IMG/VR virus record: IMGVR_UViG_3300021285_000001
Direction: 5' to 3' (one strand)
DNA length: 62,061 nt
Origin: a virus
A program made the translations under genes and the position numbers. The first letter of the stretch is position 1. Each line of letters opens with the position of its first letter. The notes under the pieces were generated by a model that made no database searches, was not told the origin of the DNA, and was given only the letters and a program-made list of their open reading frames with translations. Shown here one piece after another: positions 2,971 through 34,777 of the stretch.

Positions 2971-2990
2971 CCGCCCCATGAAGGGGCTGG
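2971..2990 (-). promoter_or_regulatory. GC-rich hairpin 28 nt downstream of VR2 (DGR target-recognition-type element)
   Basis: ccgcccc-atgaa-ggggc(t)gg forms a 7-bp stem with one bulge. It is homologous to the hairpin at 28650-28670 and has identical 28-nt spacing from the VR end. Confidence 0.55.
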
Positions 2991-3001: not shown

Positions 3002-3634
3002 TCACGGATTGATCAGGAAGCCGAACGCGACCCCGTAGGCGGAGTTCGCGATGTAGTAGTTGGCGGTGCCGTAGCTGTAGACATTCCAGAAGAAGTACGT
3101 GTAGCCCGTGTGCGGGGAACGGAGCCAGTAAAACCATGTACCGTTGTCTCCGCATTCTTTCACGCGGCTTTTCTCGGTGCTGTAAAGATTGAAGTGGATG
3201 TCTTCGTAGTCGCCTGTTCTGGGGTCGTTGGTGAGGTCGTCTCCGAACATCTCCGTCACGGAAGGGAGCCAGATTTCGTCGGGCGTTCCGCCCTCCACGA
3301 TTTTGCCGTTGATTTTCTGCTTGATTGCTCTGGGAACGATGACCGCTCTCAATTCATCCGGCAAAAGCGGGAGGATGTCCTCGCGCAGGTGGCGGCGCAT
3401 CTCCGAGGGGTTATATCCGCCTTTGTTCGTCCATTCCTTGTTCATTGCCCATTGCTCCGGCAGGCAGTCGTAGCAAACAACAGCGGCTGTGGCTCCGTAG
3501 ACGCCGGTGGCGGCGATCTCGTATTTGATTTCCTGTCCGTTCTTCAGCGTGTCGGTGATAACGGCTCCGAGGATGGGGTTTTCTGCGATTTCCTTCCAGT
3601 TGGTCTCTTTGGTGGTTTTGACTGTGATATTCAT
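3002..3634 (-). CDS. DGR variable protein 2 (small C-type-lectin-like/DUF6273-like target)
   Basis: C-terminus WFYWLRSPHTGYTYFFWNVYSYGTANYYIANSAYGVAFGFLINP parallels the fibre C-terminus and the TR. The upstream part (EIWLPSVTEM, MRRHLREDILPLLPDEL) parallels the fibre's penultimate domain. Confidence 0.8.
   Translation of the reverse strand: MNITVKTTKETNWKEIAENPILGAVITDTLKNGQEIKYEIAATGVYGATAAVVCYDCLPEQWAMNKEWTNKGGYNPSEMRRHLREDILPLLPDELRAVIVPRAIKQKINGKIVEGGTPDEIWLPSVTEMFGDDLTNDPRTGDYEDIHFNLYSTEKSRVKECGDNGTWFYWLRSPHTGYTYFFWNVYSYGTANYYIANSAYGVAFGFLINP
3019..3127 (-). repeat. DGR variable region 2 (VR2)
   Basis: Aligns to TR 28041-28152. By hand alignment there are 13 mismatches, all at TR coding-strand adenines, plus loss of one AAC codon from the (AAC)5 run. 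Confidence 0.85.
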
Positions 3635-3649: not shown

Positions 3650-4723
3650 TCAAAAAAATCTATAATGGCAGCCTTCCGCGAGCTTCTCGTAGTTCTCGTT
3701 CAGAAGGTTGAGGGTCTTGATGATTCCCGCTGGTGTCAGATCGTAGGTCTTGGCGATCCACTCCGCTGCGATTTCGTCCATCATGGTGTTGTCCTCGGCG
3801 GTCGCTCTGCCGTTGGTCAGCTTGGTCTTTACATTGACGCTCACTGGCTGCGCCATTCCGATGGCGTAGGCAAGCTGCACCTCTACGCTCTGGATTTCGT
3901 CGAAGCGTTGAATGAGGTCGCAGGCGATTTTTCGAGCCATGTATGCGCCGCTGCGGTCTACCTTGCTGGGGTCTTTGCCGCTGAAGGCTCCGCCTCCTAC
4001 GGGGCAGTAGCCGCCGTATTGGTCGCATACGATCTTCCTTCCGGTCAGTCCTGCGTCCGCTTCGGGTCCGCCTATCGTCCACGGTCCCGCAGGATTGGCT
4101 ATGACCTTCGCTTTGTTGGTGTCGATTCCGCAGTCCCAGAGTATTTCGTGGATTCCGTGAATGACCGACATCTGCGCTATGCTTTCTTTGTGGCAGGCGC
4201 TCACAAGGACGGCTTTCACGCTGGAAATGTCGGGCGGCGCGTCAAGGTCGACGGTTACCTGGCACTTCGCGTCGCCTTTGAAGAAGGTATCGGGGTTGGT
4301 CTCGACGTCCTTTTCAATGGCCGCGATTATGCGGTTGGCAAGGTCAAAACCGAAGGGCAGGAGGCTCTCGGTCTCTCTGCAGGCGTATCCGTACATCATG
4401 CCCTGATCGCCAGCGCCCTGCGCTTCTCCTTCGCCGACGCCTGCGGCAATTTCGGGCGATTGCTTCTGTATGTAGGTCATGATGTGGTCGGCTTTGTATC
4501 CGAGTTTCTTTGCCACTCCGTTTACGATCTCGGCGTAGTTTATCTCGGCTCTGGTGGTGATTTCTCCGGCAAGGATTACGGTGGTATCCTTTACCAGCGT
4601 TTCGCAAGCCACGCGGCTGTCCTTATCTTGGCGCAGGCAGGCGTCGAGAACGGCGTCGCTGATCTGGTCTGCGTATTTGTCCGGGTGGTACCGGCTCACT
4701 TGTTCTGTACTGAATAGTCGCAT
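3650..4723 (-). CDS. metK: S-adenosylmethionine synthetase
   Basis: GEITT, GAGDQGMMYGYA and GGGAFSGKDPSKVDRS motifs. Start moved to MRLFSTEQ, which has a GAAGGAGG RBS. Confidence 0.93.
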   Translation of the reverse strand: MRLFSTEQVSRYHPDKYADQISDAVLDACLRQDKDSRVACETLVKDTTVILAGEITTRAEINYAEIVNGVAKKLGYKADHIMTYIQKQSPEIAAGVGEGEAQGAGDQGMMYGYACRETESLLPFGFDLANRIIAAIEKDVETNPDTFFKGDAKCQVTVDLDAPPDISSVKAVLVSACHKESIAQMSVIHGIHEILWDCGIDTNKAKVIANPAGPWTIGGPEADAGLTGRKIVCDQYGGYCPVGGGAFSGKDPSKVDRSGAYMARKIACDLIQRFDEIQSVEVQLAYAIGMAQPVSVNVKTKLTNGRATAEDNTMMDEIAAEWIAKTYDLTPAGIIKTLNLLNENYEKLAEGCHYRFF

Positions 4724-4736
4724 TGTCCAGCCTCCT

Positions 4737-5069
4737 TCAATCTTCAAACACTCTTATGAGGTCGCCCTGTATCCCGTATCCGAAGCACAGGCTTCCGTGG
4801 TCGCAAATAAGGGCGAGTTCTGGGGTTGTGAGCTTTGGCTCGTTTTTGTAAATGCGGTATAATGCGTGGTTGTATCCTGCTTTTCTGCCTATCACAACAT
4901 CGTAGTCACTGAAGCTGCAGTCGTCTCCGTCTTTTAGGTCAATCTTCACGTCGTTTCGGTAGACCTTATATCTATCGGTCAGCTCTTTGTGGATTTCGGC
5001 GTTCATCTGAGCTTTTTCTCTCTCGTTCTCCGTGAACGCAAAAGACGGGTATATTTTCTTTTCAATCAT
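4737..5069 (-). CDS. Hypothetical protein
   Basis: 110-aa ORF with normal composition, tightly packed in the operon. Confidence 0.5.
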   Translation of the reverse strand: MIEKKIYPSFAFTENEREKAQMNAEIHKELTDRYKVYRNDVKIDLKDGDDCSFSDYDVVIGRKAGYNHALYRIYKNEPKLTTPELALICDHGSLCFGYGIQGDLIRVFED

Positions 5070-26284: not shown

Positions 26285-26692
26285 TTACTCGCCCGCATAG
26301 ACGACCTCGCTCATTTCCAGCAGGCATTCTTCGAGAAAGTCGTTCCGGTTTTCCAGTTCCTTGACCTTCTCCGTCAGTTCCGCCCTTGTAAGCACTTCCT
26401 CCTCGTCGGTGTCGTCGGGGATTTCAGGGTCTTCATCTTCCGGGTCTTCGCCTTTGATTTGGTCATACTCCTCTTTTGTGATGAATTCGGCGTATGGCTC
26501 TTTCTCCCCATGAGGCATATTCCCGTTGATGAGGTAGATGGTCTCGTTGTCCTCTCCGATGATGCCCTGTGCTTCTTCCTCGGTGCATCGAACGAGCATT
26601 CCGTTGCTCTGCCACCTGACGTAAACAAGGACTTCGATTTTCTCCGCCCCTGTGAGCCTGTCTTCTGCGTCAAACGTTTTAATGTAATGCAT
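26285..26692 (-). CDS. Hypothetical acidic protein
   Basis: Start MHYIKTF with an AAGGAGG RBS. Overlaps the RT stop by 14 nt. Confidence 0.5.
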   Translation of the reverse strand: MHYIKTFDAEDRLTGAEKIEVLVYVRWQSNGMLVRCTEEEAQGIIGEDNETIYLINGNMPHGEKEPYAEFITKEEYDQIKGEDPEDEDPEIPDDTDEEEVLTRAELTEKVKELENRNDFLEECLLEMSEVVYAGE

Positions 26693-27821
26693 ACGATTCT
26701 TCCTCCTTGAAAACAAAAAGTTTATTGAATAGGTCTCCTGCGTTCTGGATCGTGTGCCATGCGTTGAATTTCTGCGCGTAGCCTCGCCAGCTCTGCCAGC
26801 CGTTCCAGATGTCCCTGAAGGTTATCGTTCCTTCTTCGAGGCGCTTTTTCAGGCGCTTCATCTTCCGTCTCATCCGGGTGATGCTTTTCTTGCAGATTTT
26901 TCGGATAACCTTTCCGGTCTTGGTCAGGAATATCCGGGCTTTCAGCCATATAAAACCGTGCGAAAGTTTCACGAGCTGGGTCTTCTTCTGGTTGAGCGTG
27001 ATTTTCAGCATTTGGCAGATTTCCGCGATTCCCTCGCGGCACTTCTGCAGGTATTCCTTGCTTGGGTGGATGAGGTAGCCGTCGTCCATGTATCTGCCGT
27101 ATCCTCTTATCCGCAGGACTTCCTTCACGTAATGGTCGAGCCGGTTTGCCGAAGCCAGCGCCAGCACTTGGCTGATCTGGCTTCCCAGTCCGAGACCGAT
27201 GTCTCCGAAAGCGTCCACGAAATGCCCGGCGAGCTGCTTTATCTTTTCGTCCGTGAAGGTCTTCTCGAATATCCCCTTGACGATCTCGTGGGAGACGTTG
27301 TCGAAAAACTTTGAAAAGTCAAAAAGCAGGATGTAGCCTTCCTGTCCGTGCTTCCGGTAGTGTTCGTGCAGGTGCTGGGTCATGCGGCGCATACAGAAGT
27401 CGTAGCCTTTGTGCTTCATGCTCGCCCCGTTGTCGTAGACGAAGGTCGGGGTAAGCGCCGGAACGAGCGCGTTGTCGCATAGGCACCGTTGCACCACTCG
27501 CTCTCCGATGACGGTGCTGCGGATGTGTCGGTGTTTGCCTCGCTCGTAGAGGTCGAATTCGTAAAAGCCGGGGCTTCTGTATGTCCCGTTCTGCAGGCGC
27601 TGTCTGGTCTGAAAAATCGAAAGCGGGGCGGTGGATATGTACCGCTGGACGCTCGCCTTCCATGAAACGCCTCGCCTGCAGCACCGGTACGACCGGTAGA
27701 GGTTATCGTATGAAAATACGGCGTTGAAATTATCGGCTGTCTCAAGCCTTCGGGCTTTCTTTTCAGCCCTTGCCTTGATTCTCCTCTGGTATCGTTGTTC
27801 TTTTCTCTGTTCGCTTGTCAT
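26679..27821 (-). CDS. DGR-type reverse transcriptase
   Basis: ILLFDFSKFFDNVSH, DGR-characteristic LGLGSQISQVLA and GYGRYMDDGYLIH (YMDD). GGAGG RBS. The TR lies 219 nt upstream. Confidence 0.92.
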   Translation of the reverse strand: MTSEQRKEQRYQRRIKARAEKKARRLETADNFNAVFSYDNLYRSYRCCRRGVSWKASVQRYISTAPLSIFQTRQRLQNGTYRSPGFYEFDLYERGKHRHIRSTVIGERVVQRCLCDNALVPALTPTFVYDNGASMKHKGYDFCMRRMTQHLHEHYRKHGQEGYILLFDFSKFFDNVSHEIVKGIFEKTFTDEKIKQLAGHFVDAFGDIGLGLGSQISQVLALASANRLDHYVKEVLRIRGYGRYMDDGYLIHPSKEYLQKCREGIAEICQMLKITLNQKKTQLVKLSHGFIWLKARIFLTKTGKVIRKICKKSITRMRRKMKRLKKRLEEGTITFRDIWNGWQSWRGYAQKFNAWHTIQNAGDLFNKLFVFKEEESYALH

Positions 27822-28040
27822 ATAAAATCCTCCGTCACCCCGTACCCCTGTCGGAAGGTTGCGTATAGGGGCATAGCGTCACCGGCTATGAAACGCGGCA
27901 TCACCTTCAAGCCGCGCCATGCAAGCAGCGTCCAGCCGGACGCATCAGGGCGAATATTTACCTTTCGGATGGTTATGCTCTCCTTCTCTCCTGTCAAGTC
28001 TGATTTCGCCGTTTCCGGTTACTGTGTCTGCTTTGAGAGG

Positions 28041-28174
28041 AGCCGAACGCGACCCCGTAGGCGTTGTTCGCGTTGTTGTTGTTGTTGGCGTTGCCGTTGC
28101 TGTTGACATTCCAGAAGTTGTTCGTGTTGCCCGTGTTCGGGGAACGGAGCCACCAGTTCGTCGCTGCGCCGGTC
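28041..28174 (-). repeat. DGR template repeat (TR)
   Basis: 134-nt non-coding copy of VR1, rich in AAC codons including (AAC)5. The tracked ORF 27994-28197 is only this repeat read in frame. Confidence 0.9.
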
Positions 28175-28202
28175 AATGGTTGGCAGAGCATAACCATTAT
28201 TA

Positions 28203-28607
28203 TTACGGCAGTTTCGCGTATCGCGTCCTGTCCGATTTCATTACCGCTTTTATGAGGCGGTCTTCCTGATCTACCAGCCCCGCGAGTTCTTCTGCGGCGG
28301 TCGGTGTCATGATTCCGTCTTCGAGTAAAAGCTCTAACTGCGATATGTAGTCCTGCAGTTCTGCGCGGGCGCGGATGAAGAAGTCTCTCCTGATCTGCAC
28401 CTCATGCTGGTTTGCTGGAAATACAGAATTTGCTTGTTTTACGTCGCTGTGGATCCTGCGGGCTGTTGCCCAGAGTTCCTGCAAGCCGTAAAAGGTGTAG
28501 CGCTTTGGCGCGTTCACACATCGTCGGCGCGTCTTTGCTTCGAGGTCTCTTGCCGTGTGGATGAATTGCGCCTCGGATTCGTGTCTGTTTTTCAAGAGAA
28601 CGGACAT
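28203..28607 (-). CDS. Avd-like accessory variability determinant (basic helical-bundle protein)
   Basis: 134 aa, basic, predicted all-helical. It sits exactly between VR1 and the TR as in canonical DGR cassettes. Start MSVLLKN with an AAGGAGG RBS. Confidence 0.65.
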   Translation of the reverse strand: MSVLLKNRHESEAQFIHTARDLEAKTRRRCVNAPKRYTFYGLQELWATARRIHSDVKQANSVFPANQHEVQIRRDFFIRARAELQDYISQLELLLEDGIMTPTAAEELAGLVDQEDRLIKAVMKSDRTRYAKLP

Positions 28608-28649
28608 CGGTGTTCCTCCTTTCATTCACGATTTCCGCGCTTTCGGGTA

Positions 28650-28670
28650 TCCGCCCCACGAGGGGGCGGA
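28650..28670 (-). promoter_or_regulatory. GC-rich hairpin 28 nt downstream of VR1 (DGR target-recognition-type element)
   Basis: tccgcccc-acgag-ggggcgga: 8-bp stem, 5-nt loop, between the fibre stop and the avd-like start. Confidence 0.6.
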
Positions 28671-28687
28671 TTGCCCTTGATGTCTGA

Positions 28688-31600
28688 TTAAATGCAGAAG
28701 CCGAACGCGACCCCGTAGGCGTTGTTCGCGCCGTAGTTGCTGATGGCATTGCCGTAGCTGTCGACATACCAGAAGATGTACGTGAAGCCCGTGCCCGGGG
28801 AACGGAGCCACCAGTTCGTCGCCGCGCCGGACCCGAAGTTCAGCTTCTTGATCCTGCTCGTGTCGTTCGTGAAAACCGTAAACGTCGCATCGGATTCCAA
28901 AGAGTAGGGGGATGTGGTCGTTTGCGAGCCGATCTCCTTGACGCTCGGTATCCAGATTTTGTCCTCGGCGGGCGGATCCACGAGACCCGTCGCCTGGTAG
29001 CCGGTGTTCGAGTGAACGTAAACGGTCAGGATGAGCTGCTGCCATGTCGTCGGTAGGGCGTTGAAGATGCGGGCGTTCAGCCATGTTCTGAACGGCATCG
29101 CTTTCCATCCGCCTGCGTTGCTGTTCGCCGAGTTCATGACGTGCGTTTCCTCCAGCAGGTCTTTAAGCAGGAACGCGCAGTTGACGTATCTTTGGTTATC
29201 TGCACGAGTGAAGTTTCGGAACGCATACTGTGAGCTGCCGACCGCCTGCATCTTGAATGTCTGGCGCGGCCACGATACGAGTTCGCGGCAGGCGTCGTCT
29301 CCAAGGTCACCGTCCCACAGTTTTGCCCAGTAGACCGTTCCCTTGCCGTAATTGTCCACGTAGCCGTCGTTGGCGACCTGTGCGCCGAATACGAGCGGTG
29401 CTGTGTGTTCTGGCGCGGTGGTCTGTGTCAGGGCGCTGTAGGAGATTGCGTTGCCGTTCTTGTTGGATGCGTAGACATAGAGCGTGGCGTCTCCTTTTTT
29501 CTTCCTGATGACGGTGATCTGGCGCACTCCGTTGCTCGAAACCTGCAGGGCGGACGACGATCCGTATCTGACGCTTCCTCCTGTCGCGTATCTCAACAAG
29601 AAGCCGTTACTGTGGTAGCAAGCGGCAAGGCAGCCGCCTGCGGCGCTGCTGGTGTCGAATGCGAAATCTACCACGAGGGTGAAGGATTTGTCGCTGTCAA
29701 ACAGAAGGATGTCGTTGCTGTCGATCTGCGGTTTCAGGTAGTTCGTTCCGTCGAACGTCTGGGGGCTGTCAAGGCTCACGAGTTCATGTGCTGTTACGTT
29801 GCTGAAATCGAAATCACGCCCAGCCACAATGTCGATGGTGTCGCCGGAGGATACGACGTTGTTGTTTGCTCCTGTCGGCGACAGGATTTCGGTCGCCACC
29901 AGTGCATGGAGTTCGGTTGCGTTCATCTGCGCCAGCGTTTTGCCGGACGGAACGGTCGCGGATTCGTATTGTGCATAAACATCGAGGTCTCCGGTGATGT
30001 AGCCGGTCGATTTGTCCCAGCCTTTGAACAGGTAATAGGTGGCGTAGTCTCCGTCGCTTGGGTTCACCGGTGTGTTACCGGAATAAGCCACGCTGTCGCC
30101 ATATTCTGCCGTCTGTGTTTCGAGGAGCGTCGTTCCGTTGTAGAAGCGGACGGTGTATGTCCTCGTGGACGCTGCGTAGTGGGCGTAGATGGTCGTATTG
30201 GCGGTAATCGAGATCGCACTCAAGTCTGGGATGACCGACCCGCCGTCCGTCCAGCTCCAGCCGTCAAATGTGAATGTCTCCGCTGCTGTGCTGGGTTTCG
30301 TTGGCGTCGGGATCGGGTCAACATAGAGGTAGCGCGGGTCTGTCGGTGCCGAGCCTTGACCTACCCTCTGGGTGTTCAGCGTCGCTCCGTTGTAGTTCTT
30401 GAACGTGACGGTGTATGTCGGCACTTCGGTGTCGTAGGTGATCGTCAAGTTCGGGAACGCCGACCGTAATGCCGCGAGGTCGTCTGCGGTTATCATGGTT
30501 ACGTGAGCGGTGCCGGTCAATACGAAGTTGTCCGTGTTGTCGCCGCTTCCACTGATACCCGCGAGCGTTGCGAGGTGCTTCAGCAGGTTGGCGCTGTTCA
30601 TCGTCCAGTTCACGCCGATGAGACGTCCTCTGGTGAGGTTTGTGGCGTTGGTTACGAGCGTCAGCGTATCAATCAACGGGCAGTTCTCGATCCATACGCT
30701 CTGCAGGTTGGCGGCGCTCATGGTGAACGTCTCCAGTTCTGTGAGGTCTCTTGCGATGAGCTGTCGGAGCGCGTTCAGTTCTGCTACGCGCAGGGGCGCT
30801 CTCTGGGCGAATGTCACGCCGGTGATTGCCGACCCTGTGGTGTAGATTTCCTCCAGCGCCTTCAATGCCGATAGGTCGAGACCTTGCGCGAGGTTTGGCG
30901 TTCCGCGTAGGTCGATTTTCTCCATCAGGATGTTGTTTCCGAAGGAGACGCCGCCGTTCTCGGAGTTCAGCGAGGTGTTCTGGTACCCTTCTTCGCTTGA
31001 GCCGAGGATTGCCTGCTTCAGCTTCTTGGCTGACGACAGGTCGGCGAATTTCGTATAAAGGGCTGCGAGTGAGCCGATTGCCGCGATGTTGCTCGCGCTG
31101 TAGATGTAGGTTTCGAGATCGTTCAGGGACGCGCCTGCGGGCATTTCGATGTTGTATGTTTGCCCTCTGGTCGCTCTCACTCTGACGGTGCCTGCGTTGC
31201 CGTATTTGACCGTGATGTAAGTCGAGGCGTATGGAACGATCCCATTGATGTCTCCGGAAGGCTCCACGCCGCTCCACGTTTCCGGTGCGTTTGCGCGAAG
31301 GCTGATTCGGTCAGCGGTCGAAACGGACCCGCCGTATTTTGCGCTCATGTACGGCTCCTGGTATGTTTCAAACTGGATGAGCTGGTCTTCCTTCGTGCCG
31401 AGCATCGTCCTGATGTAGCGCTGCTCCTGTGCGAAAATGTACGGGGAGAAGTATTTTCCCCACATATCCTCGATGATGAGGGCTTCCGGTCTGTTGTCGC
31501 GGTATGCCTTCCATTTGGCGAGGATACGCTCTGCGCTGAACGCTCCGGCTGCTTCCAGTTGTTTGAACATCGTCTCCAGCTCGCTGCGGAAAAGGTCGCG

Positions 31601-34600
31601 CAGGTTACACCAGAGAACGCTGTCGGCTGCGTTGAAAACGTAAGCCGCGCCGACCATGTCGGTGTCTTCCATTCCGTAGGTGAACGTCAAGCCGCCGCTG
31701 TTGTCGTTACCGCTCATGGTATCGTTGTCGTAGTCCTTGCAGAAGTTCCACCGGTAGCCTCCGGCTGCGCTGTCGTATTCATAGGACACGAAGCAGTTCT
31801 TTGCGCGGTTATCCGGCAGCAGTCTGCGCTCGACCGTCAGGTAATGGTAGAGGAGGGAGTTCACGGAGAAATGGTCAGCGAGTTCCGCTCTGAATTTCGC
31901 GGCTCTGTATTCCTCGGTATCTGTCGTGTATTCCACTCCGCCGTAGGTTACGGGGTTGAGAAGCGCGTCGCCGGTGGCTGCTGCTCTGTTGGTCGAAACG
32001 ACCCACGAGAGGACGGTCTGCCATGCGGCTTTGTTCGCCGCTGTCGGCTTCTTCGGGTATCTGAATTCAAAGTTTGTATGGTCTTTGTCGTCGCCCCATG
32101 TCTCGGTTGATAAATCGTCCGACATAAAGCGGCATTGGAGCGCGTTGTTGTTGCTGATTTCGACACAGCACATATCTGGGTAGACCTTGGTATCCTGTCC
32201 GAATACGGCGTAGTTCTTTTTGCTGTTGCAAAGGTCGCCCGCGCCGTAGAGGATGGTTGCGCCCGGCTCCACCGTTCTCGCGCCGACGCTGATCGTTGTC
32301 TCTGCGGTGCTGGTGAAGAAGATCGCCGCTGCGTGTCCTTCGATTGTGTCGCGCACCTTTGGGTTGGCTGCTCTTGCAGGGTTGATGTACGGCTGGAACG
32401 CGTTGTAGTCGTCCGTCATGCAGACGTTGTTTGCGTTCTCGGACGACGCCACGTTCAGCTTGACATTCAGGTAATTGACGGGTATCGAGTTCGGGGTCAT
32501 CGCGTAGCCGGTGATGTCCTCTCCGTTACCGTTCTGCCACATGGTGGCGGTGCTGAAGTCGAGGTCAAGGTTTAGTGCCGCGAGAATGTATTCGAGGGAT
32601 GATGTTCCCTGCGCCTTCATCGTGACGCCTTGCGCCGTGAATTCGTATTCTGCGCCGCCGTTCCGGTAAATGAGCTGTACGGTGCAGGTTACCTCATCCG
32701 ATTTTGAAACGGTCATCCTGTCCGCCCAGATGTGGATGATGCGGAGTTCCGGCTTCACTTGTGAGAGTTTTGTTTCGTTGATGGTGCCGTTGTCGTTGAA
32801 GATGTCGTTTCTCTCGTAGCGGTTGACCATTTCCTCGGTGTCCGCGCAGTCTGCGATGAAATTGTCGAGGATTTCGTTCCGCGTGAGGGATGTCGAGTAC
32901 ATCTTCAGGTTGTAAATCCAGACGTCGCAGTCGGTCGAGCCGATTTTCAGGAGTTCGGGTGTTGTCTGCTGCCAGTTGTCCGCCGCCTCGTATGCGATTG
33001 CGCGGGACGGGACGCCTTCCAGCCAGATGACCGCCAGTTTGTCCTCGGCTTGCGATTCGATGTTGATGTCCATCTCGATCTTCTTTTCCTCGCAATACTG
33101 CACCGTTGCGGTCTGCAGGGTGGAGGAAAGGGTCGCCTGCTGTGCCTGCAGTTTGATGCCGACGCTGTCGGCTTTGCAGGTGGCGATCTCCGCGTCGTAG
33201 TCTCGGCACTCCGAAACCTTGAACGAGATTTTGATTTCCTTGCCGCTGGCTTTGGCATTGTCGTTGAACAGCGACCGGTCAAATGTCACGTAGCTGCCGC
33301 GTTTGATTACGAAGGCGGTCACGCCCTGATCGTCAAGTTGGAAGCCGCCCGATACCCAGTCAAAGTTCGGGCTGAATGCCAGCGGGTGGTTTAGCCCGTG
33401 TTCGTCTCTGTATCCGAAGCTGTCCCTGTCTGCTTCCGCGTTGGTGTGTCCAGTCGGGTCGAGGATCATCACAAGCCCACGCGTTACCGGCGTGATGTCG
33501 TAGGAGAGCGCCGTCACGGTCAGGGTGATGGTTGCCGATGTCGCCCCGCAGGTGATGGCGAGCGTCTCCGTACCGTCCTCGGTCGGTCTGTATGCCCATG
33601 TCTGGGTATCTCTGTCGACAGTTACGCTGGTGGATGCGCCGCCGACTACAGCGAGGGTTGCGGTCGCGGTTTCGTTCTGGGGGTCATAGATGCGGTATTT
33701 GATCGCCGCCGTGCTGTATTGCTCGACGGTGATTGCGCTCTGCAGAACAGCCACGATGGGCGTTGTGGTGCCTGCTGTTACCCAGATGCCGGTGTGCCGC
33801 AGCGGTGTGGTGGAGAGCGTTTCTCCGTCCACTGTTGTCTCGATCCACGCGGCGAGCGTGTGCGCTCCGTGTGTCTGTGCCGGTACCGTGATGGCTACGG
33901 CTCTGCCGCTCGATGAGATTACCTGGTTGTAAATCTCGGAGCCGTCGAGTGTTACCTTCACGGTTTTGTCGCCGGTGCCGGAAGGCACGAGGCGAAGGTT
34001 GAGGGCGTTGCTTCCGTGGTTTGCGAATTCCTCCACGTTCCACGCGAGGCTATAGCTGGCTACCGTTACCGTCCATGTCATGGACTTTGTGCCGCCGTAG
34101 CTGTCCTCGATTACGAGTTTTACGCTGTTCGCTGCGCCTGCGGTCAGGTAGGAGCGGCAGTTGAAGGAGCCGTTTCCCTGCGCGATGGTCGAAACCGACA
34201 CCCTTGTGCCGTTGACGTACCAGTTCGCCGAAAGGTTACCGGTGCTTTCGCCTGTGTCCGCGTCCACACTGGTGGCGCTGAACAGAATATCCATCTCGGC
34301 GGTCGCTTCCGTGATGGTGATCGTTCTCGACGCGAGGCGGTTTGTGATTGTGATTACCGACCCGGACCCGCCGCCTCCGCCGCCTCCGCCGATGAATGCG
34401 GGGTCTACCACATCCTCGCCGTTCAGCGTGATGTGCAGGTATCCGGTCTCTTGGTCGTAGCTGATACCGTCGAAGCCGACGCCGGTGTCGATGGGAATGT
34501 CGACCACGCTATCATCCCAGAACGTGATCGCGATCCCGGTTTCGGTCGCCACCACGTCTTTCACAAGGTTTGGCTTCATTGCCTCAATGCCTGCCTCGGT

Positions 34601-34777
34601 CTGGTATCCGCTGTTGATGCCTTTTGCTTTGAGTGCCGCGACGATGGCGTCAAGGGACGCTCTGCGGAGCGATTCTTTGGTGACGCCATTGACGGTTTCC
34701 TCCTGCGTCACGAGAACGCTGGCCGCATTCTTGACGCTGTTGGTTGCTTGTTTTTCGGTGATTTTTGTCGTTGCCAT
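28688..34777 (-). CDS. Giant (2029 aa) multidomain tail fibre / receptor-binding protein, DGR target 1
   Basis: LRR-like segment (LTELETFTMSAANLQSVWIENCPLIDTLTL...), two YTVTF/YTVRF...GW...YA repeats of the Listeria-Bacteroides type, a possible CotH-like middle region, and the C-terminal WWLRSP...AYGVAFGFCI lectin-like VR. Confidence 0.9.
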   Translation of the reverse strand: MATTKITEKQATNSVKNAASVLVTQEETVNGVTKESLRRASLDAIVAALKAKGINSGYQTEAGIEAMKPNLVKDVVATETGIAITFWDDSVVDIPIDTGVGFDGISYDQETGYLHITLNGEDVVDPAFIGGGGGGGGSGSVITITNRLASRTITITEATAEMDILFSATSVDADTGESTGNLSANWYVNGTRVSVSTIAQGNGSFNCRSYLTAGAANSVKLVIEDSYGGTKSMTWTVTVASYSLAWNVEEFANHGSNALNLRLVPSGTGDKTVKVTLDGSEIYNQVISSSGRAVAITVPAQTHGAHTLAAWIETTVDGETLSTTPLRHTGIWVTAGTTTPIVAVLQSAITVEQYSTAAIKYRIYDPQNETATATLAVVGGASTSVTVDRDTQTWAYRPTEDGTETLAITCGATSATITLTVTALSYDITPVTRGLVMILDPTGHTNAEADRDSFGYRDEHGLNHPLAFSPNFDWVSGGFQLDDQGVTAFVIKRGSYVTFDRSLFNDNAKASGKEIKISFKVSECRDYDAEIATCKADSVGIKLQAQQATLSSTLQTATVQYCEEKKIEMDINIESQAEDKLAVIWLEGVPSRAIAYEAADNWQQTTPELLKIGSTDCDVWIYNLKMYSTSLTRNEILDNFIADCADTEEMVNRYERNDIFNDNGTINETKLSQVKPELRIIHIWADRMTVSKSDEVTCTVQLIYRNGGAEYEFTAQGVTMKAQGTSSLEYILAALNLDLDFSTATMWQNGNGEDITGYAMTPNSIPVNYLNVKLNVASSENANNVCMTDDYNAFQPYINPARAANPKVRDTIEGHAAAIFFTSTAETTISVGARTVEPGATILYGAGDLCNSKKNYAVFGQDTKVYPDMCCVEISNNNALQCRFMSDDLSTETWGDDKDHTNFEFRYPKKPTAANKAAWQTVLSWVVSTNRAAATGDALLNPVTYGGVEYTTDTEEYRAAKFRAELADHFSVNSLLYHYLTVERRLLPDNRAKNCFVSYEYDSAAGGYRWNFCKDYDNDTMSGNDNSGGLTFTYGMEDTDMVGAAYVFNAADSVLWCNLRDLFRSELETMFKQLEAAGAFSAERILAKWKAYRDNRPEALIIEDMWGKYFSPYIFAQEQRYIRTMLGTKEDQLIQFETYQEPYMSAKYGGSVSTADRISLRANAPETWSGVEPSGDINGIVPYASTYITVKYGNAGTVRVRATRGQTYNIEMPAGASLNDLETYIYSASNIAAIGSLAALYTKFADLSSAKKLKQAILGSSEEGYQNTSLNSENGGVSFGNNILMEKIDLRGTPNLAQGLDLSALKALEEIYTTGSAITGVTFAQRAPLRVAELNALRQLIARDLTELETFTMSAANLQSVWIENCPLIDTLTLVTNATNLTRGRLIGVNWTMNSANLLKHLATLAGISGSGDNTDNFVLTGTAHVTMITADDLAALRSAFPNLTITYDTEVPTYTVTFKNYNGATLNTQRVGQGSAPTDPRYLYVDPIPTPTKPSTAAETFTFDGWSWTDGGSVIPDLSAISITANTTIYAHYAASTRTYTVRFYNGTTLLETQTAEYGDSVAYSGNTPVNPSDGDYATYYLFKGWDKSTGYITGDLDVYAQYESATVPSGKTLAQMNATELHALVATEILSPTGANNNVVSSGDTIDIVAGRDFDFSNVTAHELVSLDSPQTFDGTNYLKPQIDSNDILLFDSDKSFTLVVDFAFDTSSAAGGCLAACYHSNGFLLRYATGGSVRYGSSSALQVSSNGVRQITVIRKKKGDATLYVYASNKNGNAISYSALTQTTAPEHTAPLVFGAQVANDGYVDNYGKGTVYWAKLWDGDLGDDACRELVSWPRQTFKMQAVGSSQYAFRNFTRADNQRYVNCAFLLKDLLEETHVMNSANSNAGGWKAMPFRTWLNARIFNALPTTWQQLILTVYVHSNTGYQATGLVDPPAEDKIWIPSVKEIGSQTTTSPYSLESDATFTVFTNDTSRIKKLNFGSGAATNWWLRSPGTGFTYIFWYVDSYGNAISNYGANNAYGVAFGFCI
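28699..28832 (-). repeat. DGR variable region 1 (VR1)
   Basis: Same length as the TR. By hand alignment there are 17 mismatches, 16 at TR coding-strand adenines and 1 C-to-T. Confidence 0.9.

Follow-up and report, generated by a model that had tools for sequence, protein, structure and literature searches.

The virus record IMGVR_UViG_3300021285_000001 of IMG/VR, a 62,061-nucleotide stretch of DNA analysed here at its full length and called the window below, raises the question of whether a reverse transcriptase (RT) gene and the repeated sequence upstream of it form a working diversity-generating retroelement (DGR), which proteins such an element would diversify and which RNA it would use. 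An initial annotation, made from the sequence alone, had proposed a complete DGR consisting of a target gene ending in a variable repeat (VR), a hairpin, an avd-like gene, a template repeat (TR) and an RT gene. All of these parts were found where they had been placed, on the minus strand, which carries every gene in the DGR part of the window. Their order, target-VR, hairpin, avd, TR, spacer RNA and RT, is the canonical phage layout, as in Bordetella phage BPP-1. We conclude with high confidence that the locus is a complete and recently active DGR with two targets, carried by a myovirus-type temperate phage of gut or rumen Clostridia. Judged from sequence, the element shows all of the DGR hallmarks tested at that level, and it is a well-preserved case of an already known system that leaves the current understanding of DGRs unchanged.

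One template and two variable repeats

The TR (28041–28174) is 134 nt long, has its end 219 nt from the RT start codon and duplicates the last coding part of a large target gene (28688–34777) encoding 2029 amino acids (aa), all as initially described. It contains 39 adenines and, in keeping with the AAC richness noted earlier, 15 in-frame AAC codons including an (AAC)5 tract. Its copy, VR1 (28699–28832), forms the closing ~45 codons of the large target and stops 8 nt short of the stop codon (28688–28690). Ungapped alignment of TR and VR1 gives 17 mismatches, 16 of them at TR adenines and one a C-to-T change, which reproduces exactly an earlier count by hand; given the share of adenines in the TR (39 of 134 nt), a hypergeometric test puts the chance that 16 or more of the 17 mismatches coincide with an A at 2.6e-9. 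The C-to-T change (TR 28090, VR 28748) is synonymous, AAC to AAT. The outermost mismatch, at TR 28173, probably lies just beyond the true 5' boundary of the repeat: the VR1 of a relative carries the same T there, and the homology ends at that point. Randomisation of the TR adenines turns no codon into a stop codon and allows up to ~2.7e22 protein variants.

Scanning the window with an adenine-masked TR revealed a second repeat, VR2 (3019–3127), 25 kb distant from the DGR core at the 3' end of a small target gene (3002–3634, minus strand) encoding a 210-aa protein. The label VR1 in the initial annotation may hint that a second VR had been listed separately. VR2 matches TR 28041–28152 with a single 3-nt, one-codon deletion within the (AAC)5 tract; the 109 positions that align contain 13 substitutions, every one of them opposite a TR adenine (P = 1.5e-8), and 14 nt separate the last base of VR2 from the stop codon. 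Both VRs are located at the 3' ends of protein-coding targets, and the TR is located between avd and RT, the arrangement by which DGRs are recognised.

The two targets share DUF6273, a domain already published as a DGR target. It covers residues 1869–2028 at the C-terminus of the large target (Pfam PF19789, 7e-19) and is the single domain of the 210-aa protein (PF19789, 5.3e-17), whose AlphaFold2 (AF2) model has a predicted local distance difference test (pLDDT) score of 94 and finds phage DUF6273 proteins as its top BFVD matches. Relatives of the 210-aa protein were sought as related loci in IMG/VR, and none were found. Among solved structures the DUF6273 model has a single significant match, PDB 9qa6, an immunoglobulin A (IgA) peptidase of Thomasclavelia ramosa (E = 3.8e-4, probability 1.0, template-modelling (TM) score 0.61 on the query); the modelled fold suggests that this peptidase holds a DUF6273-like domain. 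The designation of the large target as a fibre derives only from gene position, at the end of the baseplate and tail genes; the protein itself has PHROG matches only of unknown function.

Evidence for homing came from relatives, sampled through exact-protein look-ups and cluster listings. In L001, which has ~90% DNA identity to the window, the TR is 100% identical and the spacer differs by one base, while VR1 differs from that of the window at TR-adenine sites. L085 and L086, which encode an identical Avd protein, have several non-A changes in the TR, and the same changes are present in their VR1. The GGC, GTC and CAG codons specific to the TR of L152 recur in its VR1 and also in the VR2 of P0242, a protein tied to L152 only by being listed on a contig of the same 57,223-bp size; both VRs therefore appear to have been overwritten from the TR. 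Because non-A changes of the TR are mirrored in both VRs, we take the element to have been active recently. In protein clusters at 90% identity, with 11 small-target and 14 large-target sequences aligned, most of the variation falls on the TR-adenine codons of the final ~45 residues. The tip of the large target, expected from the outset to be hypervariable, is indeed the hypervariable part of its cluster, and VR2 is likewise hypervariable among the members of the small-target cluster. Comparison of these sequences argues for recent mutagenic homing that left the VRs hypervariable and the TR invariant. A degenerate TR pattern, with A replaced by N, retrieved just one relative contig from IMG/VR and from the JGI metagenome collection, the same one in both.

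These data bear on the possibility that the repeats are ordinary paralogous C-termini of DUF6273 proteins, one of which decayed beside a selfish RT, leaving a relic without current mutagenic homing. The length difference between VR2 and TR, the one non-A mismatch in VR1 and a single T-to-C difference between the VR1 sequences of L085 and L086 would suit such a relic, as would the fact that the support for activity comes from assemblies rather than from read-level data. Decay, however, does not account for mismatches that in both VRs fall almost exclusively at TR adenines, for a TR that stays constant where the VRs differ (as in L001), for non-A TR polymorphisms copied into both VRs in different lineages, or for hypervariability confined to TR-A codons in ~25 relatives; the RT, Avd and spacer RNA are, moreover, all intact. 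A relic is thus largely refuted already, and we consider it very improbable; the reading that the DGR is complete and was recently active is retained.

Some further observations concern the repeats. Among the rare non-A changes between TR and VR are C-to-T changes in the third position of AAC codons, which read AAT in the window and ACT in L085, and the T-to-C difference between L086 and L085 changes TAC to CAC. The TR lies within an ATG-started 67-aa open reading frame (ORF) in the VR frame (27994–28197, minus strand), and the source assembly calls a 65-aa ORF at this site as a gene with a DUF6273 Pfam match; this TR-spanning ORF of 65 or 67 aa is probably an artefact of the TR and not a real gene. 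Four clusters of small DUF6273 proteins at 90% identity (P0227, P0192, P0235 and P0198) have hundreds to thousands of distinct members, up to 3753, as expected where DGR hypervariation is sampled across public metagenomes.

Reverse transcriptase, Avd and spacer RNA

The RT gene (26679–27821) is intact. Its 380-aa product carries both motifs first reported, LGSQISQ (residue 212) and YMDD (residue 244). Profile searches matched it to Pfam RVT_1 (1.4e-13) and to the phage RT family PHROG 1423 (6e-80). Among solved structures the RT of the BPP-1 DGR (bRT, 8ub7_A; 2.7e-14) is the best match, with group II intron RTs scoring more weakly (4.6e-9). The profile comparison that had been proposed as a check therefore comes out on the DGR side, as do the DGR-clade motifs, a catalytic YxDD and, in motif 4, [LIV]GxxxSQ. 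Group II intron and retron RTs have QGxxxSP where DGR RTs have LGxxxSQ. When the RT was compared by tblastn with deposited phages, the named phages among the matches listed were all known DGR carriers: Roseburia phage Shimadzu, nd12 and nd4, and Faecalibacterium phages Toutatis, Lelie, Pioen and Brigit. Bordetella records were also present among the matches listed. Identity to the named phages is 30–48%, with Shimadzu top-scoring at 48% aa identity over residues 30–370.

That the enzyme is instead a retron, group II intron or defence-type (DRT/Abi) RT, placed beside the repeats by coincidence, was named at the outset as an outcome that would count against a DGR. Similarity to such enzymes does exist: an NCBIfam scan of the RT gave nothing above any curated cut-off, and below the cut-offs it returned the group II RT/maturase model TIGR04416 at 77 bits (cut-off 300), a retron RT model at 44 bits (cut-off 235) and Drt models. 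All of these scores are far under their thresholds, while the LGxxxSQ motif is present and the best solved relative is bRT. An Rfam scan of the window at threshold found no group II intron or retron RNA family, its sole match being RT-2, and nearly all loci of the RT family with enough upstream sequence have an A-mismatched TR/VR pair. A coincidental neighbour of another RT class can scarcely be credited, and the enzyme is taken below as the DGR RT.

The gene in the avd position (28203–28607) had been described as a basic, helical ORF of 134 aa. A ribosome-binding site, GGAGG, precedes its start at ATG 28607 (the mechanical ORF, begun at 28625, has 140 aa), and its product has an isoelectric point of 9.2. 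The protein matches PHROG 3206, 'Avd protein of DGR' (1.6e-7). It has no Pfam or NCBIfam match of its own in the window, and 11 of 31 homologues reach Pfam PF05635. A PDB sequence search with the ORF, single or as a profile, gave nothing meaningful, and the structural tie to Avd comes from fold comparison. The AF2 model (pLDDT 85) has four helices and finds 2gsc, 2rld, 8ub7_B/E and 4dwl with a Foldseek probability of 1.0; it superposes on BPP-1 Avd (4dwl, 8ub7_B/E; target-normalised TM 0.82) and on structures of the 23S-rRNA intervening protein (IVP) family. The PHROG match and a four-helix-bundle model like BPP-1 Avd both agree with the first description.

The RNA between TR and RT was identified through the Rfam scan. 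The spacer (Sp; 27815–28036), which reaches into the RT start codon, matches RT-2 (RF03077) in cmscan with 147.2 bits against a gathering score of 40, over model positions 1–222 of 222. Of 20 related genome loci, with RTs 43–75% identical, 19 have RT-2 RNA immediately before the RT gene. Rfam describes RT-2 as an sRNA-type motif near RT genes, without assigned function. Among these motifs only RT-10 was linked to a DGR by Weinberg et al. (2017), who went no further than speculation about the others (PMC5737381). In the window and in these relatives RT-2 is the DGR spacer, by analogy a cis-priming RNA, and this is the function that we offer for the Rfam family.

The minimum free energy (MFE) fold of the transcript, taken from the 3' end of avd up to the beginning of the RT gene, contains a perfect 13-bp helix that brackets the TR, formed by an upstream strand between the avd stop codon and the TR (ATGGTTATGCTCT, 28185–28197) and a strand in the spacer (AGAGCATAACCAT, 27969–27981). 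The spacer strand falls within a stretch of RT-2 (about positions 48–66) that Rfam models as unpaired, and its partner is outside the Rfam model. In 33 distinct relatives a 12-bp helix is present at the same relative positions with 99% of alignment cells paired, a percentage that is inflated because the segments were first found by a complementarity search. Compensatory changes are present in 9 of the 12 pairs, and controls slid by 1–3 columns pair at 43–54%; the constant position and the slid controls both speak against an artefact. By analogy, the bracketing duplex would be the counterpart of the 'cPRT Stop' duplex that avd and Sp form in the BPP-1 ribonucleoprotein, and such duplexes have been predicted for 207 DGRs (bioRxiv 10.1101/2023.10.23.563531); its spacer strand is accordingly a candidate 'cPRT Stop' strand. 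The result is a covariation-backed secondary-structure map for RT-2 RNA that includes a long-range helix beyond the Rfam model.

The same fold contains a candidate template:primer duplex between CTCCT in the TR 3' flank (28038–28042) and AGGAG in the spacer (27988–27992), the latter immediately 5' of a conserved linker, AGAAGG (27982–27987). Compensatory versions are present in relatives (CTACTC/GAGTAG, ATCCTA/TAGGAT, ATCCTG/CAGGAT and ATTCTA/TAGAAT). A formal covariation claim for this duplex was dropped, as one-nucleotide register shifts make a count in a fixed register too noisy, and the primer duplex is backed less strongly than the stop duplex. The position of this candidate fits the end of the TR/VR homology, at which GGCT gives way to CC (TR) or TC (VRs).

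The 3' ends of the VRs show the remaining cis elements. The TR and both VRs share a conserved GC-rich end, GGGGTCGCGTTCGGCT, after which the TR reads CC and the VRs read TC, resembling the initiation of mutagenic homing (IMH) and IMH* sequences. The hairpin expected between VR1 and the avd gene is present at 28649–28671 (minus strand), 27 nt past the end of the VR1 homology; it is GC-rich, with a 9-bp stem, a 5-nt loop and a folding z-score of −4.7. A second GC-rich hairpin (2971–2990, minus strand; CC-A-GCCCC / TTCAT / GGGGC-GG) stands at about the same distance, 28 nt, past the end of the VR2 homology. Stems of at least 7 bp occur downstream of 44 of 55 VR sequences of the RT family; the stem sequences differ, and the loops are of the CTTTGT, CTCGT or CTTGT type.

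Several observations weigh against reading the locus as a complete and recently active DGR. The VR2 hairpin is imperfect, with a z-score of only −2.0, and the loops of both hairpins, CTCGT at VR1 and TTCAT at VR2, depart from the 4-nt GRNA loop consensus of BPP-type DGR hairpins (PMC3240598). The register of the primer duplex is noisy across the family, with one-nucleotide shifts between subfamilies, and the pairing percentage of the bracketing duplex carries the inflation described above. Foldseek comparison of the DUF6273 model with the PDB gave no significant link to solved C-type lectins, and recent activity is deduced from differences between assemblies.

Loop-length variation at the (AAC)n tract

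The VRs differ from the TR not only in their bases but also in the length of one segment. Units were counted as NNC codons opposite the (AAC)n tract in the TR, VR1 and VR2. The window has five units in the TR, five in VR1 and four in VR2. L001 has five in the TR and six in VR1, and L085 and L086 have four and five, VR2 not having been recovered from these three. ERZ28633714 scaffold_128 has five in the TR, four in VR1 and six in VR2, and k141_1778617 (L152) has four in the TR and six in VR1, with seven in the VR2 of P0242, from the contig of the same size. Altogether the lengths of TR and VR differ in six of seven distinct pairs of this phage lineage, counting L085 and L086 as one. The extra VR codons keep the NNC pattern in all cases, and the VR loops have ~3–7 NNC codons. 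In-frame indels at an AAY tract were also found in 6 of ~60 RT-family loci of IMG/VR.

Length differences as such are not presented as a new observation, since in-frame indels beside AAC were described by Wu et al. (2018), who found TR/VR length differences in ~7% of DGRs, mostly beside AAC, and proposed RT slippage (PMC5758913); slippage at AAC repeats has been restated since (PMC12875486). A different origin would be replication slippage of the (AAC)n microsatellite in the TR DNA itself, which would then drift after each homing event and need no slippage of the RT. The TR is indeed polymorphic in length, with (AAC)5 in the window, L001 and L159 and (AAC)4 in L085, L086 and L152. However, differences of opposite sign are present in a single genome, ERZ28633714 scaffold_128; the six-unit VR1 of L152 and the seven-unit VR2 of P0242 stand against a TR of four; and no TR with six or seven units was seen. 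The NNC pattern of the extra codons is also that expected of re-copied, A-mutagenised AAC units, and the published interpretation is RT slippage at AAC repeats (PMC5758913, PMC12875486). Drift of the TR microsatellite is therefore a partial alternative that leaves the VRs of six to seven units and the opposite-sign differences unexplained, and we think it rather unlikely. RT slippage is the reading followed below. Because its loops change length in frame so often at the AAC tract, the lineage is well suited to testing slippage by the RT.

The data presented above have led us to a model built largely on analogy with BPP-1. A transcript running from the 3' end of avd through the TR and the spacer would fold so that the 13-bp duplex (28185–28197 with 27969–27981) brackets the TR. 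Pairing of CTCCT (28038–28042) with AGGAG (27988–27992) would then set up cis-primed reverse transcription by an RT-Avd complex, starting at about G28043. The RT would copy the TR faithfully except at adenines, which would be randomised, and slippage on the (AAC)4–5 tract would alter the length of one surface loop within ~3–7 NNC codons. The cDNA would replace the homologous 3' coding ends of the 2029-aa tail-module protein (VR1) and the 210-aa DUF6273 protein (VR2), each target VR being marked by the conserved GC-rich 3' end and, possibly, by the hairpin ~27 nt downstream. The diversified proteins may bind receptors.

A broader proposal is that RT-2 is the defining cis-RNA of a large DGR lineage of Clostridia phages, characterised by a 12–13-bp clamp on the TR, the AGAAGG linker and a short primer helix, and that frequent RT slippage at (AAC)n is a selected second mode of diversification, varying the length of a binding loop over ~3–7 codons in two targets at once, rather than an occasional error. 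We put this forward tentatively, as a possibility against which the balance still leans somewhat.

Phage setting and known systems

The genes ahead of the large target encode a tail sheath, a tape measure, a baseplate wedge and then a 924-aa protein with tail-fibre matches; the sheath, tape measure and baseplate wedge genes identify the phage as myovirus-type. Lysis genes come after the large target, which closes the baseplate/tail module. A near-identical DGR cassette with an identical Avd is located inside a 1.07-Mb scaffold, L086 (ENA ERZ28653857 scaffold_1, 1,066,176 bp), from which it follows that the phage is temperate and occurs as a prophage. This scaffold could identify the host; the metagenome-assembled genomes (MAGs) that hold relatives are those of gut and rumen Clostridia.

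Two neighbouring genes deserve mention. An acidic 135-aa ORF (26285–26692, minus strand) overlaps the 3' end of the RT gene by 14 nt and is conserved in close relatives; Pfam gives just a faint XkdX-like hint (E = 0.32), and the ORF stands where the lysis module begins. Although weighed as an additional DGR accessory, it may instead be part of the tail/lysis module. Directly upstream of the small target is a phage-encoded S-adenosylmethionine synthetase gene (3650–4747, minus strand) with all three MetK Pfam domains (1e-42), a pairing that is retained in relatives L153–L157.

Related elements vary in their surroundings. Among L057, L068, L072 and L071, some have two VRs within ~3 kb of the TR, and the RT of L071 is preceded by several TR-like copies in tandem. 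A Christensenella MAG has a type II hammerhead ribozyme (L128, 6959–7020) ~3 kb downstream of a related DGR RT, and in another MAG a transfer-messenger RNA (tmRNA) gene (L118, 5291–5676) is located ~1.2 kb downstream of the RT gene, where it may mark a prophage integration site.

The closest mechanistic comparison is with the prototype DGR of BPP-1 (mtd-avd-TR-brt), which shares with the window its gene order, its adenine-specific TR/VR differences, the best solved homologue of the RT (8ub7_A) and the fold of Avd. In the BPP-1 bRT-Avd-RNA structure the spacer pairs with the TR 3' flank and with an upstream segment (bioRxiv 10.1101/2023.10.23.563531), as predicted here. The two elements differ in their parts. 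The spacer belongs to RT-2 here, whereas Weinberg et al. placed the RT-10 motif in BPP-1 (PMC5737381). In the bracketing duplex, the strand upstream of the TR follows the avd stop codon here and lies inside avd in BPP-1; the linker between primer and stop duplexes is a conserved 6-nt AGAAGG rather than 2 nt; and the hairpin loops are of 5–6 nt (CTCGT/CTTTGT type) rather than 4-nt GRNA. The target domain is DUF6273 rather than Mtd, and the window has two targets, one of them 25 kb away.

In using one TR for two targets the phage resembles other phages of gut Firmicutes, namely Faecalibacterium phages Lelie and CP11 (PMC11792537) and gut phages nd4 and nd12 (PMC10743442), the RTs of this group being only 30–36% identical to that of the window. 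Lelie and CP11 have a large and a small target, both DUF6273 proteins with the VR at the DUF6273 C-terminus (PMC11792537), and the target2 proteins of nd4 and nd12 are single-domain DUF6273 proteins like the 210-aa protein described here (PMC10743442). The larger target of nd4 and nd12, tentaclin, has its VR near the N-terminus, whereas both VRs of the window are C-terminal (PMC10743442). At the nucleotide level the phage genome has no similarity to deposited phages apart from the DGR-core region of Roseburia phage Shimadzu, the only one with detectable DNA similarity (68% over the spacer RNA and the TR 3' region); Shimadzu is a different phage, and the likeness is limited to the DGR core. Set beside these systems, the window provides a clean natural DGR, with every cis and trans part readable from sequence and one TR serving two targets 25 kb apart. 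What it adds, modestly, is the assignment of RT-2 as the spacer RNA in this lineage of DGRs, a long-range helix supported by covariation and unusually frequent loop-length variation in both targets.

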